A stretch of DNA of 64,000 nucleotides, taken from positions 13,451 through 77,450 of the forward strand of contig DATNJB010000085.1 of the NCBI GenBank assembly GCA_035604135.1, written 5' to 3'. The stretch is from Caulobacteraceae bacterium (GTDB lineage Bacteria; Pseudomonadota; Alphaproteobacteria; Caulobacterales; Caulobacteraceae). A program made the translations under genes and the position numbers. Of the stretch, positions 27,894 through 36,764 are shown piece after piece. A model generated the notes under the pieces. The model did no database searches and was not told the DNA's origin. It saw only the letters and a program-made list of their open reading frames with translations. How positions within the stretch are numbered: position 1 is the first letter of the stretch; the number at the start of each line of letters is the position of its first letter.

Positions 27894-29021
27894 ATGGGCC
27901 AGGGGCCTTTATCGGGATTGAAGATCGTCGAATTCGCCGGCATCGGGCCGGGTCCGTTCTGCGGCATGCTTTTGTCGGACCTCGGCGCGGACGTGGTTCG
28001 CATCGACCGCAAGGGCTCGGGCCGGGGGTCAAAGTTCGACGTGACCAGCCGCGGACGGCGTTCGGTCGCACTCGACCTGAAGACCCCGCAGGCCGTCGAA
28101 GCCTGCCTGACGCTCATGCAGCGCGCCGACGCGGTGTTCGAGGGCTTCAGGCCCGGCGTGATGGAGCGTCTAGGCCTCGGTCCCGAGATCGCGCTCAAGC
28201 GCAACCCGAGGCTCGTCTACGGCCGCATGACGGGCTGGGGGCAGACCGGCCCGCTCTCGCAAGCCGCCGGGCATGACATCAACTACATCGCGCTCACCGG
28301 CGCGCTGGCGGCGATCGGCACGGCGGAAAAACCCGTCCCGCCGCTCAACCTGGTCGGCGATTTCGGCGGTGGGGCGCTCTATCTCGCCTTCGGCCTTTTG
28401 GCCGGGATCATCCACGCGCGGGCGACCGGCGTGGGGCAGGTGGTCGACTGCGCCATGACCGACGGGTCGGCCTCGCTGATGGCCATGTTCTACGGGATGA
28501 CCGCCTCCGGTATGTGGCGCACTGGGCGCAGCGCCAACATGCTGGATGGCGGCGCGCAGTTCTACGACGTCTATCAGTGCAAGGACGATAAGTGGATCGC
28601 ACTCGGATCAATTGAGCCTCAATTTTACGCACTACTACTTGAGAAGACGGGGATAAACGATCCACAGTTCAAGGCGCAGATGAACCGCGAAGACTGGCCC
28701 GAGCTGAAGCGCAAACTGGCCACGGTGATCAGGACCCGCACCCGCGACGAGTGGGAGGAGATCATGGGCGGCTCCGACGTCTGTTTCGCGCCGGTTTTGG
28801 GCATCGACGAGGCGCCCAGTCACCCGCACAACGCCGCCCGGCAGACTTTCGTGACCGTCGAGGGGGTGGTGCAGCCGGCGCCGGCCCCGCGGTTCTCGGC
28901 TTCACCCTCCGGCCCACCGGCGCCGCCGCCCGCGATCGGGGCGCACAACCGTGAGGCCCTGGCCGACTGGGGCTTCGACGCCGAGACGATAACGGCGTTG
29001 GAGTCGGTTGCGGCGCTCTGA
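27894..29021 (+). CDS. CaiB/BaiF family III CoA-transferase (alpha-methylacyl-CoA racemase-like)
   Basis: [46 protein letters not shown]. Confidence 0.92.
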
Positions 29022-29079
29022 CGCAGAAAAAAATGCGCCGTCTTCAAGCTCGATTCAGCATGCCCCGCGCATAGTGGCG

Positions 29080-29198
29080 GCATCGTCGGCCGTGGTTCCT
29101 CCCTGTCCCTCCGGCAGCGGCCGACCTTGAGCGAAGGACGTTCCCCTGCGTCCCGGCGGCGGCGCGCTGTCCCTAGTGGCGGTGCGCCGCTTCTTTTT
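29080..29198 (+). ncRNA. Candidate small RNA: three hairpins with C-rich loops and an intrinsic terminator
   Basis: Stems gtcggccg/cggccgac (loop contains ttcctccctgtccctcc), ggacg/cgtcc (loop ttcccctg), gcggcgcgc/gtgcgccgc (tccc) followed by ttcttttt; 5' end is an estimate. Confidence 0.65.
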
Positions 29199-29236
29199 CG
29201 CGTCGACAAAGCGATGCGGGCGGCTATGTCGGGGGC

Positions 29237-30151
29237 GTGGACCAGCCCGCCGTTCAGGGGGCCGCGCAAGGCGTAGGCCATTGGGGGATCAGGCTTTTGA
29301 GCCTGCTCTGGCGGACGCTGGTCCGGATGTGGGGCCGCGACGTCATGCTTTACGTCGGCGGCGTTTCTTTCTTCGCCATGCTGGCGGTGTTCCCGGCGCT
29401 GGCCATCGTGCTCGGCGTCTACTCTGTTCTGCTCACGCCAGAGCAGGCTTTGGCGCAGGCCAGTGCGTTTGCGCAGATCCTGCCGCCCGCCGCGCTGACC
29501 CTCTTCCAGTCCGAGCTCCTGCGCCTCTCGCAGGCTCCAATCCGCGCCATCTCGCTGCAAAGCCTGCTGGCGCTCGTGATTGGCGTCTACGCAGCCCATC
29601 GCAGCTTCAAGGCGCTCTTCGCCGGGCTCTCCTTCATCCACGACGAGGAGACGCCGCGGGGCTTCTTGAGCTTCAACCTCCTGGCCCTGTTCGCGCTCCT
29701 GGCCGCGTTCGTGCTTCTGACCCTGGTCTCCGGCCTCTTCCTCGCGCTCCGCTTCGCCCGCACGGAGCTACACCTGCCCTTGCACCTGGGTTTGTTCTTG
29801 AACGAGTGGACCTGGGCATCCGTGGGCATCAGCATCGGGCTCACGCTGATCTATCGCTACGCCATGTCGAGCGAGCCGGTCTCATGGTGCCTGGCGGCGG
29901 TGGGCGGCGTCGCGGCGGCCGGCCTCTCCCTCGCGGCGTCGTGGGCCAGCGCCGTCTACGTCACGCAGATCGCCAACTTCGGCGCAACCTACGGCTCGAT
30001 CGCCGCGGTCATCGTGCTGCTGATCTGGCTCTCCTGGAACGTGAACGCGATCTTCTTCGGCGCCTCGCTTACAACAGAGATCGAGCTCCTGACCCATCCG
30101 GCGGGACGAAAGCGGCTCAACCACCTGGTCCGCCCGCGGCGGCCTTCCTGA
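29237..30151 (+). CDS. YihY/BrkB family membrane protein
   Basis: SFFAMLAVFP, YVTQIANFGATYGSIAAVIVLLIWL..FFGA. Confidence 0.88.
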   Translation: MDQPAVQGAAQGVGHWGIRLLSLLWRTLVRMWGRDVMLYVGGVSFFAMLAVFPALAIVLGVYSVLLTPEQALAQASAFAQILPPAALTLFQSELLRLSQAPIRAISLQSLLALVIGVYAAHRSFKALFAGLSFIHDEETPRGFLSFNLLALFALLAAFVLLTLVSGLFLALRFARTELHLPLHLGLFLNEWTWASVGISIGLTLIYRYAMSSEPVSWCLAAVGGVAAAGLSLAASWASAVYVTQIANFGATYGSIAAVIVLLIWLSWNVNAIFFGASLTTEIELLTHPAGRKRLNHLVRPRRPS

Positions 30152-32610: not shown

Positions 32611-33936
32611 TCAGCCCGGATCTTCCAGGTTGAACTGGTCCACGTCCTCGTGGAAGGCGAACACCTCGGCGTAGCGGCCCCAGGTGATCACCGCGTCGAG
32701 CGTCTCCTCGGCGTAGGTCTCGCTCATGAAGTCCTCGAGCTCGTCGCGGAAGCGCCGGGCCGGTGCCTGGTGCGAGGCGCGGTCGTCGAGCACGCGGCGA
32801 ATGTGGGCGGCGAGCGGCACGTAGGTCAGTAGATGCTGGGCGAACAGCTGCTTGCGCTCGTCGACGTCGGCGTTGGCGTAACGCCGCCCGGCGGGGCTCA
32901 GCCGGATCGTGCGTCCGTCGATCTCCGCAAAGCGCATCAGCTGCAGCGTTTCGGCGATCGGCAACAGCTCGTCGGCCTCTAGCTGCAGATCGTTGGCCAG
33001 ATCCGGCAGCTCGGCCTTGCCGTTGTTCGGCGGCGCGAACACCGACTCGATCATGCCGTTCAGCGTGTTGGTCGATATATGGGTCAACGCCATGCCGATG
33101 CCGGTGCCGGCAAAGCCGGTGACGGCATGGACCGCCGCCGTGGTCGGACGCGCGGTCATGCGCGCGTAGATGTCGTCGACCAGTGCGCGAAAGGCGGGAT
33201 CGAGGCGCTTCCTGGGCTGCGGCAGGTCGACCTTGATCTCGGCGATGATGTGGCCCGGATTGGAAGCGAACACGCAAATGCGGTCGCACATCAAGACCGC
33301 CTCCTCGATGTTGTGCGTCACCATCAGGATCGAGCGGATCGGCATGCGGCCCTCGCACCAGAGGTCCAGAAGGTCGGTGCGCAGCGTCTCCGCCGTCAGC
33401 ACGTCGAGCGCCGAGAAGGGTTCGTCCATCAGCAAGACCGAGGGCTGTACGACCAGCGCGCGGGCAAGGCCTACCCGCTGACGCATGCCGCCGGAGAGCT
33501 CCTTCGGATAGGCGCTCTCGAAGCCGTCGAGGCCGATCAGGTCGATGGCGGCAATGGCGCGCTTGCGCCGCTCATCCGGTGCGATGCCTTGCGCCTCCAG
33601 TCCAAGCTCGACGTTCTGCAGCACCGTCAGCCAGGGAAACAGGGCGAAGCTCTGGAACACCATGGCCACGCCGTGGGCGGCGTCGTCGCCGGGGATGTCC
33701 CGCACCATGACCGTGCCCTCGGTCGGCCGGATCAAGCCGGAGATGGCGCGCAGCAAAGTCGATTTGCCTGACCCGGAGCGGCCCAGCAGGCCCACGATCT
33801 CGTTCGGCTTCAGCGTCAAGTCGACGTGGTCGAGCACGAGCAGGTTGGCGCCGGCGCCCTTGCCATAGACGTGGCGCAGGTCGCGGACCTCGACCAGGTT
33901 CACGTCGTCGCGGGCGGGCGCCTCGAGCACGGTCAT
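32611..33936 (-). CDS. NitT/TauT family ABC ATPase with C-terminal extension
   Basis: GRSGSGKS, ELSGGMRQRVG, MDEPFSALD; long C-terminal domain ending WGRYAE.F.F. Confidence 0.9.
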   Translation of the reverse strand: MTVLEAPARDDVNLVEVRDLRHVYGKGAGANLLVLDHVDLTLKPNEIVGLLGRSGSGKSTLLRAISGLIRPTEGTVMVRDIPGDDAAHGVAMVFQSFALFPWLTVLQNVELGLEAQGIAPDERRKRAIAAIDLIGLDGFESAYPKELSGGMRQRVGLARALVVQPSVLLMDEPFSALDVLTAETLRTDLLDLWCEGRMPIRSILMVTHNIEEAVLMCDRICVFASNPGHIIAEIKVDLPQPRKRLDPAFRALVDDIYARMTARPTTAAVHAVTGFAGTGIGMALTHISTNTLNGMIESVFAPPNNGKAELPDLANDLQLEADELLPIAETLQLMRFAEIDGRTIRLSPAGRRYANADVDERKQLFAQHLLTYVPLAAHIRRVLDDRASHQAPARRFRDELEDFMSETYAEETLDAVITWGRYAEVFAFHEDVDQFNLEDPG

Positions 33937-33949
33937 GGCGGGCTTTCCT

Positions 33950-35698
33950 CTAGTCCAGGCGAAGGCGCCGCGCGGCGAAACCGTAGAGCGGCCGCCAGAG
34001 CGTGCGGTTGATGATGATGACGAACACCGACATTGCCGCGATGCCGAGGGCGACGCGCGGATAGTCGCCGGCCGTCGTCGCGTCGGCAATATAGGAACCG
34101 AGGCCGGCCGCTTCGATCTTTGTGTGGTTCCAGGTGACCACCTCGGCGACCACACTCGCGTTCCAGGAACCCCCCGAGGCGGTCAGGGCGCCGGTAACGT
34201 AATAGGGGAAGATGCCGGGCAGGGCGACCTGGCGCCACCACTGCCAGCGGCGCACGTGGAAGATCGAGGCCGCTTCCTTCAGGTCGGTTGGCAGGACGCT
34301 GGCGCCGGCGATGACGTTGAACAGGATGTACCACTGGGTGCCGAGGATCATCAGCGGCGAGAGCCAGATGTTGGGCACAAGGTGCAGCGCCACGATGAGG
34401 CCGACGGCGATCGGGAAGAGCACGTTGGCGGGGAAGGCGGCGAGGAACTGGGCGATCGGCTGCACCCGCTCAGTCCAGGCGGGACGAAGGCCGATCCATA
34501 CCCCGATGGGAACCCAGATCAGGCTGGCGATGGCGATCAGCACCAGCACGCGGGTGAGCGTGATCAGGCCCAAGCCGAACGCGACGACGGCGTCATGCAG
34601 CGTCAGCGTCTCGCTGACATAGCGATAAACCAGCCAGGCGCCGGCAAGCGCGGCGACGATGACTACAGCGAACCAGATCCAGTCGAGCGCACGGGAGACG
34701 CGGGGGTCGAACGGCGGCGGTGGCTGAATCCTGATCCCGGGGAGGGGTGGCAGGTTTGTCAGCGTGCGGGACACGGGGCGAAAGAGACGCGGGATGAGCC
34801 GCATCCGCTTCAAGAGCTCGAAGAACCAGGACCTCGGCGGATCCTGTGAGGCGGTCTGCTCGACGCGGAACTTGTCGGCCCAGGCGACGATCGGGCGAAA
34901 CAGCAGCTGGTCGTAGAGGAAGATCACAACCGCCATGGTCGCCACCGCCCAGACGACGGCGCGGGTGTCGCCGCGCTCGCCCGCCAGCGCCAGCCATGAC
35001 CCGATGCCGGGCAAGGTGACGGTGGTGTTGCCGACCGTGATCGCCTCGGACAACACGACGAAGAACCATGCGCCGGACATCGACATCATCGTGTTCCACA
35101 CGAGCGCCGGCGTCGCGAACGGCAGCTCGAGCCGCCAGAAGCGACCCCAGGGCGAGAGCCCAAACCCGCGCGCGGCCTCGTCCAGGTCGGCGGGGAGGGT
35201 CTTCAGCGACTGGTAGAAGCTGAACGCCATGTTCCACGCCTGGGCGGTGAAGACGGCGAAGATGGCGGCGGCCTCCGCCCCCAGCTCGTTGCCGGGGAAC
35301 AGGTTCATGAAAAAGGTCACCGTGAAGGTCAGGAAACCGAAGACCGGTATCGACTGCAGGATGTCGAGCGCCGGAATGATCACCAGTTCGGCTTTGCGGC
35401 TTTTCGCTGCCAGCGTCGCGACCACGAAGGTGAAAAGCAGCGAGCCCGCCAGCGCCGCGAACATGCGCAGGACCGTGAGCAGGGCATAGCCAGGCAGCCG
35501 AGTCGGATCGAGCGTGACCGGCGCGATCTGCAGGGCGGTCAGAGGGCGGCCCATCTGCTGCGCGCCGTGCACCACCAGCACCGCGATGCCTGCGATCATG
35601 AAGATGGTGACGAGGTCGCCGCGGGTCGGTGTGAACTGCCGCCGCGCGAAGCGGGCGAGCAGCGCCGGGCTCATGCGCTCGGGGAACTGAAAAGACAT
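33950..35698 (-). CDS. NitT/TauT family ABC permease (duplicated transmembrane domains)
   Basis: DILQSIPV, WNMAFSFYQSL, QFLAAFPAN, QWYILFNVIAGA. Confidence 0.88.
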   Translation of the reverse strand: MSFQFPERMSPALLARFARRQFTPTRGDLVTIFMIAGIAVLVVHGAQQMGRPLTALQIAPVTLDPTRLPGYALLTVLRMFAALAGSLLFTFVVATLAAKSRKAELVIIPALDILQSIPVFGFLTFTVTFFMNLFPGNELGAEAAAIFAVFTAQAWNMAFSFYQSLKTLPADLDEAARGFGLSPWGRFWRLELPFATPALVWNTMMSMSGAWFFVVLSEAITVGNTTVTLPGIGSWLALAGERGDTRAVVWAVATMAVVIFLYDQLLFRPIVAWADKFRVEQTASQDPPRSWFFELLKRMRLIPRLFRPVSRTLTNLPPLPGIRIQPPPPFDPRVSRALDWIWFAVVIVAALAGAWLVYRYVSETLTLHDAVVAFGLGLITLTRVLVLIAIASLIWVPIGVWIGLRPAWTERVQPIAQFLAAFPANVLFPIAVGLIVALHLVPNIWLSPLMILGTQWYILFNVIAGASVLPTDLKEAASIFHVRRWQWWRQVALPGIFPYYVTGALTASGGSWNASVVAEVVTWNHTKIEAAGLGSYIADATTAGDYPRVALGIAAMSVFVIIINRTLWRPLYGFAARRLRLD

Positions 35699-35807
35699 GA
35701 GCCGGCCCTCGCGTCGCAGGTGCTGGTAAGCACCGCCACGCACATTTGTCCATCACGCCGCCGTGACAGCGCCTAAAGGCGCGTTTGGATCAGTCAGATC
35801 CGGGCTT

Positions 35808-36764
35808 TCACGCCGTCGCGGCCTGATGCTCGAGGAACCAGCGATAGGCGTCGGCCAGGCCCTCGGCCAGCGGGATGCGCCGCCGCCACCCCAGCGCCTC
35901 GAGTTTGCCGCAGTCCAGCCGCTTGCGCGGCGTGCCGTCCGGCTTGGTCAGGTCGTGCACGATCTCGGCATCGAGGCCCACCGCCGCGCCGATCATATTG
36001 GCGAGCTCGAGGATCGAGACCTCGTCGCCCGTGCCGACGTTCACGTGGCCCTCGCCCGAATAGCGCGTCATCAGGAAGACGAGCGCGTCGGCGCAATCAT
36101 CGGCGTGCAGGAACTCGCGCAAGGGCGCGCCGGTGCCCCAGACGGTCAGCGTCCGCTCGCCCTTGGCCTTGGCCTCGTGCGCCTTGCGCAAGAGCGCCGC
36201 CAGCGCGTGCGAGGAGGCCAGATCGTAGTTGTCGCCCGGCCCGTAGAGGTTGGTCGGCATCGCGGCGATGAAGTCGCAGCCATATTGGCGTCGGTAGGCC
36301 TGCGCCATCTTCAGGCCAGCGATCTTGGCGATCGCGTACCATTCGTTGGTGGGCTCGAGCGGCCCGGTGAGCAGCGCTTCCTCGGCGATCGGCTGTGGAG
36401 CAAACTTCGGGTAGATGCAGCTCGAGCCCAGGAACAGCAGCTTGGCGACGCCGGCCAGACGCGCGCCTTCGATTACATTGGTCTGGATGGCCAGATTGTC
36501 GTGCAGGAACTCCGCCGGATAGTTTTCGTTCGCCAGGATGCCGCCCACCTTGGCGGCGGCAAGGAAGATCGCGTCCGGGCGGGCGTCGGCCATCCAGGCC
36601 TGCGTCGACGCTTGCCGCCTCAGGTCGAGGTCGGCGCGACTTACGGTCAAAATCTCGCAGTCCTCGCGCGCCAGCCGCCGCACCAGCGCCTGGCCTACCA
36701 TGCCGCCGTGGCCGGCCACCCACACGCGCTTGCCCTTGAGCGGGAACACCGCCTCAGTCGGCAT
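35808..36764 (-). CDS. fcl: GDP-L-fucose synthase
   Basis: [43 protein letters not shown]. Confidence 0.96.

Follow-up and report, generated by a model that had tools for sequence, protein, structure and literature searches.

A diverged CC1840-family small RNA with a candidate FeuP-type promoter upstream of yihY in an uncultured Caulobacteraceae genus

Introduction

What is encoded in the gap between a CoA-transferase gene and yihY in an uncultured member of the Caulobacteraceae? The DNA analysed, called here the window, is a stretch of 64,000 nucleotides of contig DATNJB010000085.1 (positions 13,451 to 77,450 of assembly GCA_035604135.1), and its host belongs to a genus represented by a metagenome-assembled genome (MAG). 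A preliminary description, made from the letters alone, had placed three hairpins with C-rich loops in this gap. They were read as an unannotated, trans-acting and probably Hfq-dependent small RNA (sRNA) or sponge of the kind seen in the SuhB/alpha-r8 and cuckoo/alpha-r14 families, or else as a terminating leader of yihY. The sRNA reading proves right in kind and wrong in family. An sRNA gene of ~117 nt at 29082..29198 on the + strand, the element adds a diverged new member to an sRNA family already known, that of the caulobacter sRNA CC1840 (RF01521). The explanation favoured here, with a probability of roughly three in four, is that of a stand-alone trans-acting sRNA, orthologous to CC1840, which would be transcribed from its own FeuP-type promoter and would pair with its targets through the loop of its first hairpin.

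Identity of the element

The element had been called unannotated with good reason, as no gathering-level Rfam match covers it, nor was any such match found anywhere in the whole window. A permissive Rfam search of positions 28950-29350 with all 4227 families (E <= 10) gave only CC1840 and a weak match to the Xoo2 terminator. The RF01521 model, whose gathering cut-off is 50 bits, aligned with all of its 95 positions at 29082-29188, scoring 22.7 bits (E = 0.6). Its consensus helices, a 5' stem-loop with a large loop and a terminator stem-loop, are present in the window, and so is the core of the loop. The covariance search that the preliminary description had proposed therefore brought out CC1840, and the families named there were absent: neither SuhB/alpha-r8 nor cuckoo/alpha-r14 matched even at E <= 10. 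The loops of these two families carry CCUCC-type sequences resembling an anti-Shine-Dalgarno.

The RF01521 model was built from Caulobacter sequences, and its cut-off is an operational limit, not a feature of the biology. When RF01521 was searched in 40 related genomes, two genomes from other genera of the same family passed the cut-off with 66-69 bits, and both of them (G023 and G024) show a CoA_transf_3 gene, the RNA and a BrkB gene in the same order as the window. Full-length matches of 35-47 bits were obtained in seven genomes of the host's own genus, and the nearest relative (G009) has a weak match at the site homologous to the window element. A covariance model, R1, was built from 12 sequences, namely 10 from the own genus and the 2 above the RF01521 cut-off. 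It was applied to 80 named Caulobacteraceae loci that had been fetched via the YihY protein and that include Caulobacter vibrioides, C. segnis, C. hibisci, Phenylobacterium aquaticum and many MAGs. One + strand copy directly upstream of yihY was found in 76 of the 80 loci, as well as in the window, so that R1 collects 77 + strand sequences with E <= 1e-5; the window element itself scores 79.6 bits (E = 1e-17). In Caulobacter and Phenylobacterium the R1 matches coincide with RF01521 matches of 55.6-93.5 bits. At the R1 coordinates of a sample of loci, the RF01521 score was 93.5 bits for C. vibrioides T5M6, fell to 69-91 bits for other Caulobacter and to 56-59 bits for Phenylobacterium, and was 46 bits for the own genus. 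Among 301 genomes of the order, R1 detected one copy each in 33, nearly all of them in Caulobacteraceae, and one genus of small genomes mostly lacks the sRNA.

The window element is thus linked to bona fide CC1840 through intermediates, and it occupies the genomic position of CC1840, between a family-III CoA-transferase gene and yihY/BrkB on the strand of yihY. Because the intermediates are graded (46 to 93 bits), the synteny is identical and one covariance model joins them, the element is, as judged from sequence and position, a diverged positional ortholog of CC1840 that the present Rfam model misses.

The first report of CC1840 is said to be a tiling-array survey, Landt et al. 2008. In the literature searched, nothing was found that ascribes a function, a regulator or a target to it, and its NA1000 name was likewise absent from the texts and supplements of the Caulobacter sRNA papers searched. 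Two named Caulobacter sRNAs, GsrN and ChvR, were considered as possible identities of CC1840, and both are ruled out by position and promoter.

Conserved structure and loops

The hairpins and loop letters of the preliminary description were all found where it had placed them. Stem-loop 1 (29085..29125) carries a large C-rich loop, UUCCUCCCUGUCCCUCC at 29096-29112, which is the predicted pairing site. Stem-loop 2 (29136..29153) has the loop UCCCCU. Stem-loop 3 spans 29158-29191 with the C-rich loop UCCCUAGU and is followed by UCUUUUU at 29192-29198, the whole (29158..29198) forming an intrinsic terminator whose hairpin has 14 pairs, 10 of them G-C; the terminator scan called it on the + strand only. 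Folding of the + strand gave the three hairpins at -62.8 kcal/mol (z = -1.57), and the - strand, with z = +0.37, shows nothing. By itself this folding energy is not significant in G+C-rich DNA. That the element goes beyond chance is concluded from cross-species comparison, i.e., from pairing, covariation and shuffles, and not from folding energy.

The structure was tested on an alignment of the 77 sequences (75 distinct rows), which had been fitted to R1 and in this respect favours the structure. Standard pairs are formed in 96.2% of the stem cells, and compensatory changes on both sides were seen in 24 of the 25 stem pairs. None of 500 shuffles reached any of the five measures, and in controls with slid partners pairing dropped to 32-65%. 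Double changes across the family affect all 12 pairs of stem 1 and 12 of the 13 pairs of the terminator stem, in which 98.5% of the cells pair. An independent MAFFT/RNAalifold run with 12 sequences recovered the same two helices with 11 covarying pairs. The preliminary description would have been undone by a lack of structural conservation in relatives; what was found is conservation.

The middle hairpin is kept, at -3 kcal/mol or better, in 57 of 65 distinct sequences, and its sequence is not conserved. In the same 65 sequences, loop 1 contains the near-invariant CCGUCCCUC and has a C fraction of 0.50 and a G fraction of 0.14; the corresponding core in the window is CUGUCCCUC. Most relatives also have a loop 3 rich in C, with a mean C fraction of 0.51. 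In loop 2, richness in C is restricted to the small clade of the window, and so is an additional UUCCUCCC in loop 1. Of the three C-rich loops described earlier, all are present in the window and loop 1 alone is conserved in sequence among relatives. The three-hairpin plan and the CCGUCCCUC loop are conserved in the family.

Promoter of the sRNA

Upstream of the element lies the sequence cTTCAaGCTCGaTTCAG (29042..29058, + strand), a candidate response-regulator (FeuP) box of the form TTCA-N7-TTCA, which overlaps the -35 region and is conserved in the orthologs. Its core in the window reads TTCA AGCTCGA TTCA at 29043-29057. The family consensus upstream of the orthologs is GTTCAG-N5-GTTCAG, and 76 of 77 loci share an identical core, TTCA-N7-TTCA. 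In the orthologous loci the box is found 24-29 nt before stem 1, and a CTAnnnT-type -10 element follows it after 10-11 nt in 76 of them; in the window the predicted -10 element at the equivalent conserved position is CATAGT (29070..29075, + strand). Box and -10 element are conserved far better than the surrounding spacer. A position weight matrix derived from the family ranked the window box fourth among all matches in the genome of 3.6 Mb. OmpR/PhoB-type activators have this geometry, in which a pair of repeats, spaced by one helical turn, stands in place of a -35 element.

Transcription would start near A29082, the first base of both the Rfam and the R1 alignments, 24-25 nt after the box. 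With this predicted start, the window shows the spacing of the FeuP regulon, in which TTCA-N7-TTCA ends ~23-25 nt before the start. The sRNA is accordingly predicted to have its own promoter. This promoter and the conservation described above support the earlier proposal of a separate sRNA gene, probably acting in trans, whose C-rich loops are exposed.

Control by LexA was considered and rejected. The family box formally fits the pattern GTTC-N7-GTTC, but the AT-rich SOS-type boxes of this genome, TGTTCTT-N4-TTGTTCT, are of a different class, and the window box reads CTTC-N7-ATTC where the LexA pattern has GTTC-N7-GTTC. CC1840 is absent from the mitomycin C-induced sRNAs listed for Caulobacter (PMC6237742). 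The direct repeats TGTTCTT-N4-TTGTTCT are an observation of their own. They form a clear class in the genome and fit the alphaproteobacterial LexA operator GTTC-N7-GTTC, with sites, for example, on contigs C4 (- strand, 17682), C12 (+ strand, 46783) and C21 (+ strand, 29095), and further ones on C25 (+ strand, 59046), C38 (- strand, 484) and C85 (+ strand, 78654). They would define the SOS regulon of this MAG.

Candidate regulator of the box

The exact 17-mer pattern of the box occurs at 3-5 sites per genome in three Caulobacter genomes, compared with 0-1 for a reversed control. All sites other than that of the sRNA precede genes for small envelope proteins. In Caulobacter, the products named by Pfam are an RcnB-like protein, a YnbE-like lipoprotein with DUF1318/YdbL, and a secreted protein of beta/gamma-crystallin fold. 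The remaining ones have no Pfam match; two contain a glycine-rich hydrophobic stretch and one is a small membrane protein, and a predicted signal or membrane segment is present in them. In the window's genome, the best box sites precede genes for a DUF6491 protein, for a protein that matches a glycine-zipper weakly and below the cut-off, and for an RcnB-like protein, and it is the RcnB-like gene that carries the box both there and in Caulobacter. The sites are located on contigs C35 (- strand, ~8516), C38 (- strand, ~24496), C74 (+ strand, 8668) and C44 (- strand, ~54081), and those of Caulobacter in loci L104-L115.

Among the 14 OmpR-family regulator genes of the genome, a single one has the box upstream, with a matrix score of 14.0, for which ~0.02 chance matches are expected in the scanned sequence. 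This gene belongs to an operon outside the window (contig C63, ~33700-36110, - strand) that consists of the box followed by genes for an exported PepSY protein (161 amino acids), a response regulator (227 amino acids) and a histidine kinase (463 amino acids). The box before the first gene reads tATTCAG-N5-ATTCAG (TTCAG-N6-TTCAG), as for an autoregulated operon, and the PepSY ATG comes ~7 nt after the -10 element, apparently without a leader. The box was found at the same place before the PepSY gene in 27 of 29 genomes of the order, other families included, and in the genomes examined the regulator and kinase genes follow PepSY everywhere. The regulator is unusually conserved, with 85-99% identity within the family and ~75% across families, and is closest to PmrA/BasR/QseB. 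These regulators bind 6-5-6 direct repeats.

FeuPQ is reportedly an osmosensing system, a role ascribed to it by Griffitts 2008. In Sinorhizobium meliloti, Motif 3 (TTCA-N7-TTCA) precedes FeuP-dependent genes as well as feuN, with which the feuNPQ operon begins, and Schlueter et al. proposed it to be the FeuP site (PMC3616915). That paper summarises the regulon and the operon with reference to Griffitts et al. 2008 and to a separate study of FeuN. Its Table S17 gives the sites TTCAGGCTCCGTTCAG, TTCATCCGGCGTTCAG, TTCATTTGCCATTCAG (feuN) and TTCAGAAGCCATTCAT (ndvA), and most of these end 23-25 nt before mapped starts (PMC3616915). The PepSY-regulator-kinase operon is probably the counterpart of feuNPQ. 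Since the box stands before this operon across the order and matches Motif 3 of S. meliloti, the sRNA is predicted to be activated by FeuP as a member of its regulon, the box being a candidate FeuP-type site.

Other envelope regulators were considered as well. The ChvI motif consists of GCC repeats 11 nt apart (bioRxiv 10.1101/2021.04.17.440287), that of CenR is TGA-N8-TGA with half-sites TGAC/GTGAC (PMC9275681), and that of UzcR is CATTAC-N6-TTAA (PMC8963506). ChvI, CenR and UzcR were rejected, as their motifs fit worse than TTCA-N7-TTCA and none of their genes carries the box. For a comparison of promoters, ChvR was sought upstream of recF; no sRNA was found there in this genome or in Caulobacter sp. 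UC70_42.

Mode of action and targets

In the mechanism proposed here, the TTCA-N7-TTCA tandem repeat would replace the -35 element of the sRNA promoter and would be bound, most likely, by the phosphorylated OmpR-family regulator of the PepSY-regulator-kinase operon, the presumed FeuN-FeuP-FeuQ counterpart, which carries the same box ahead of its own genes. The strong terminator would stop transcription 38 nt ahead of yihY. The functional part of the RNA would be the large loop of hairpin 1, with the core (C)CGUCCCUC kept throughout the family. This loop may pair with G-rich stretches in target mRNAs (GAGGGAC-like, typically ribosome-binding sites) and lower their translation. An envelope/osmotic two-component system would thereby also act post-transcriptionally through the sRNA, in addition to activating its small exported proteins.

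A G-rich, Shine-Dalgarno-like sequence, GAGGGACGG, is the complement of the conserved and single-stranded CCGUCCCUC. Related modes of action have been described in Caulobacter. The C-rich loops of AbnZ pair, independently of Hfq, with a stretch rich in G in the 5' untranslated region (UTR) of tamAB (PMC11724286), and ChvR, which is also Hfq-independent, pairs with the chvT mRNA via its second and third stem-loops (PMC6237742). Pairing at or near ribosome-binding sites with translational repression is what we propose for the CC1840 family too. The U-tail is good in the RNA of the window and reads UCUUUG in the Caulobacter members. Because AbnZ and ChvR are Hfq-independent and the Caulobacter members have a short U-tail only, the Hfq dependence assumed earlier seems doubtful.

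For targets, all start regions of the window's genome were scanned for duplexes. The top match, 12 nt of perfect pairing, lies over the ribosome-binding site of a gene for an NAD-dependent epimerase/dehydratase on contig C79. GAGGGAC sites near start codons of the same genome have no common theme. A match of 8-10 bp to the 5' UTR of the RcnB-like gene, which shares the box, was seen in two Caulobacter genomes, and the window's genome has no counterpart of it.

Several points weigh against the reading as an ortholog of CC1840 under FeuP control that pairs through loop 1. The RF01521 score of the window element lies below the gathering cut-off (22.7 vs 50 bits). The upstream half of the box is weaker in the clade of the window (cTTCAa) than in the consensus GTTCAG. 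The box is also overlapped weakly by the CenR pattern TGA-N8-TGA on the other strand (PMC9275681) and by the ChvI pattern GCC-N8-GCC (bioRxiv 10.1101/2021.04.17.440287). The PepSY-regulator-kinase operon is equated with feuNPQ by gene order and box alone, and the link between box and FeuP comes from a motif prediction in a distant alphaproteobacterium. For this organism, the expression, 5' end and size of the sRNA are predicted ones. The target prediction that had been recommended yielded no conserved target; at the epimerase/dehydratase site, checked in seven relatives, the ribosome-binding site alone is conserved.

Alternative explanations

The C-rich loops might act as a sponge or decoy that soaks up a G-rich sRNA or an RNA-binding protein. 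There is a precedent in CrfA, which sponges the SisA-D sRNAs in Caulobacter (PMC12559287); two to three C-rich loops are exposed per molecule, and a sponge would agree with the outcome of the target search. However, that a single loop is conserved in sequence is more in keeping with one seed than with a decoy with several sites, neither a partner RNA nor a partner protein was identified, and the C-rich loops of AbnZ and the stem-loops of ChvR act on mRNAs (PMC11724286, PMC6237742). A sponge is considered improbable, though a little less so than the other alternatives.

The preliminary description had offered a terminating leader of yihY as its own alternative. In this case, sRNA and yihY would share a promoter, transcription would usually stop at the terminator, and conditional read-through, as in an attenuator or riboswitch, would allow expression of yihY. 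The gene (29237..30151, + strand; Pfam PF03631, E = 4e-40) codes for a BrkB-family membrane protein and forms the right flank of the sRNA. The distance from the U-run to its start is 38 nt, and the 215-bp gap, which runs from the CoA-transferase stop (29021) to this start with both genes on the + strand, was likewise confirmed by the coordinates. It speaks for a leader that the RNA is on the same strand and always directly upstream of yihY, at 23-130 nt in most loci, and that the two are neighbours in all of the family.

Between the terminator and yihY, however, a second promoter is predicted from sequence conservation (29203..29230, + strand), with a -35 element TCGACA (29203-29208) and a -10 element TATGTC (29225-29230). 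Across the genus, GCGTCGACAAAG ... GGCTATGT, 7 nt and then the start codon are conserved in this interval. In Caulobacter, a TTGAC ... CCATGGT pair is found directly after the sRNA terminator or overlapping it, and the ATG follows 6-8 nt further. No Shine-Dalgarno sequence stands at a proper distance before the yihY start in the window, the genus or Caulobacter. The yihY mRNA is thus probably leaderless and transcribed from its own promoter. The start codon is ATG in most members and GTG in the clade of the window; a leaderless GTG start, as it would be here (29203-29239), is unusual for leaderless translation. Moreover, the sRNA ends in a very strong terminator, the covariation of both main stems is that of simple hairpins, and no conserved anti-terminator pairing was found. 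Rfam lists the Caulobacter member as an sRNA gene, and no riboswitch or leader family matches. Given the separate conserved promoter and the leaderless-type start, a terminating leader is unlikely, slightly more so than a sponge.

The RNA could also be the 3' untranslated end of the CoA-transferase mRNA, possibly processed to a stable fragment and lacking a promoter of its own. The left flank of the sRNA is formed by the gene for this family-III enzyme (27894..29021, + strand; Pfam PF02515, E = 9e-85). The sRNA starts 60 nt past its stop codon on the same strand, this neighbour is conserved too, and no terminator belonging to the enzyme gene precedes the sRNA. The better conservation of box and -10 element than of the spacer around them stands against such an origin, as does the occurrence of the same box ahead of unrelated genes elsewhere, and it is regarded as very unlikely. 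Chance hairpins in G+C-rich intergenic DNA joined to an ordinary terminator, which the weak folding z-score would allow, are refuted by the covariation test and by the conservation of loop sequence, position and promoter in 76 loci.

Comparison with known systems and significance

The stand-alone CC1840 ortholog of the window agrees with CC1840 of C. crescentus (RF01521) in its position, in its plan of three hairpins, in the GUCCCUC core of its loop, in the TTCA-N7-TTCA box and in being present once per genome. It differs in that its hairpin 1 has two mismatched pairs and an inner mini-helix, its loop 1 contains the extra UUCCUCCC as an anti-Shine-Dalgarno stretch, and its hairpin 2 is longer with a C-rich loop; the sequence as a whole has drifted and the upstream half of its box has weakened. 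AbnZ and ChvR are likewise G+C-rich sRNAs with three hairpins and with ties to the envelope (PMC11724286, PMC6237742), but there is no sequence relationship and no Rfam match to them. AbnZ is cut from a 3' UTR (PMC11724286), whereas the RNA of the window has a predicted promoter of its own. ChvR is driven by the envelope two-component system ChvGI (PMC6237742) and depends on ChvI and UzcR, whereas the window RNA carries a different box. The cuckoo/alpha-r14 (CcsR) and SuhB/alpha-r8 (SisA-D in Caulobacter) RNAs are alphaproteobacterial sRNAs too; they occur as multi-copy siblings, in contrast to the single-copy, syntenic RNA described here.

With FeuN-FeuP-FeuQ of S. meliloti the system has in common a box ~23-25 nt before the start, which here is a predicted one, an autoregulated operon in which a small gene (feuN; here exported PepSY) is placed ahead of regulator and kinase, and a regulon made up mostly of small exported proteins of unknown function. 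Two differences are apparent. The Caulobacteraceae box is longer (GTTCAG-N5-GTTCAG), and no sRNA appears among the motif-bearing promoters in the parts of Tables S16/S17 examined (PMC3616915).

It seems somewhat better than an even proposition that the CC1840 family constitutes an unrecognised post-transcriptional arm of the FeuN-FeuP-FeuQ envelope/osmotic system in Caulobacteraceae, tuning the envelope via pairing of the GUCCCUC loop. The small GTTCAG-N5-GTTCAG regulon would then comprise the feuNPQ operon, a handful of small exported proteins (RcnB-like, YnbE-YdbL, glycine-zipper and crystallin-fold) and one sRNA. In the literature searched, no Caulobacter sRNA was linked to FeuNPQ and no Caulobacter FeuP regulon had been published. 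If the proposal is true, CC1840 would be a third envelope-linked Caulobacter sRNA beside ChvR and AbnZ.

The value added by the present analysis is the predicted FeuP-type control. CC1840 has long been listed without a function, and the conserved box makes the question of its regulator directly testable in C. crescentus. Moreover, a compact regulon emerges from the box for a two-component system whose conservation in alphaproteobacteria is very high. The Rfam model of CC1840, finally, is too narrow, since it misses at least one whole genus of Caulobacteraceae, and the alignment of 77 sequences would extend it.

Other observations

A repeat of ~65 nt, CCCACACCTCTCCCA(G/T)AGGGAGAGGGAGGGGCCCCGAGCGAAGCGA..GGGGAGGGTGAGGGGTTAC, is nearly identical on at least four contigs of the window's genome, C29 (- strand), C14 (- strand), C28 (+ strand) and C79 (- strand). 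An inverted repeat (CTCTCCC ... GGGAGAG) lies within it, and it has the look of a dispersed repeat of intergenic regions. In the window, an open reading frame of 273 codons on the - strand (28820-29641) covers the whole sRNA and the ends of both flanking genes; this antisense frame is most likely the usual spurious frame of G+C-rich DNA.

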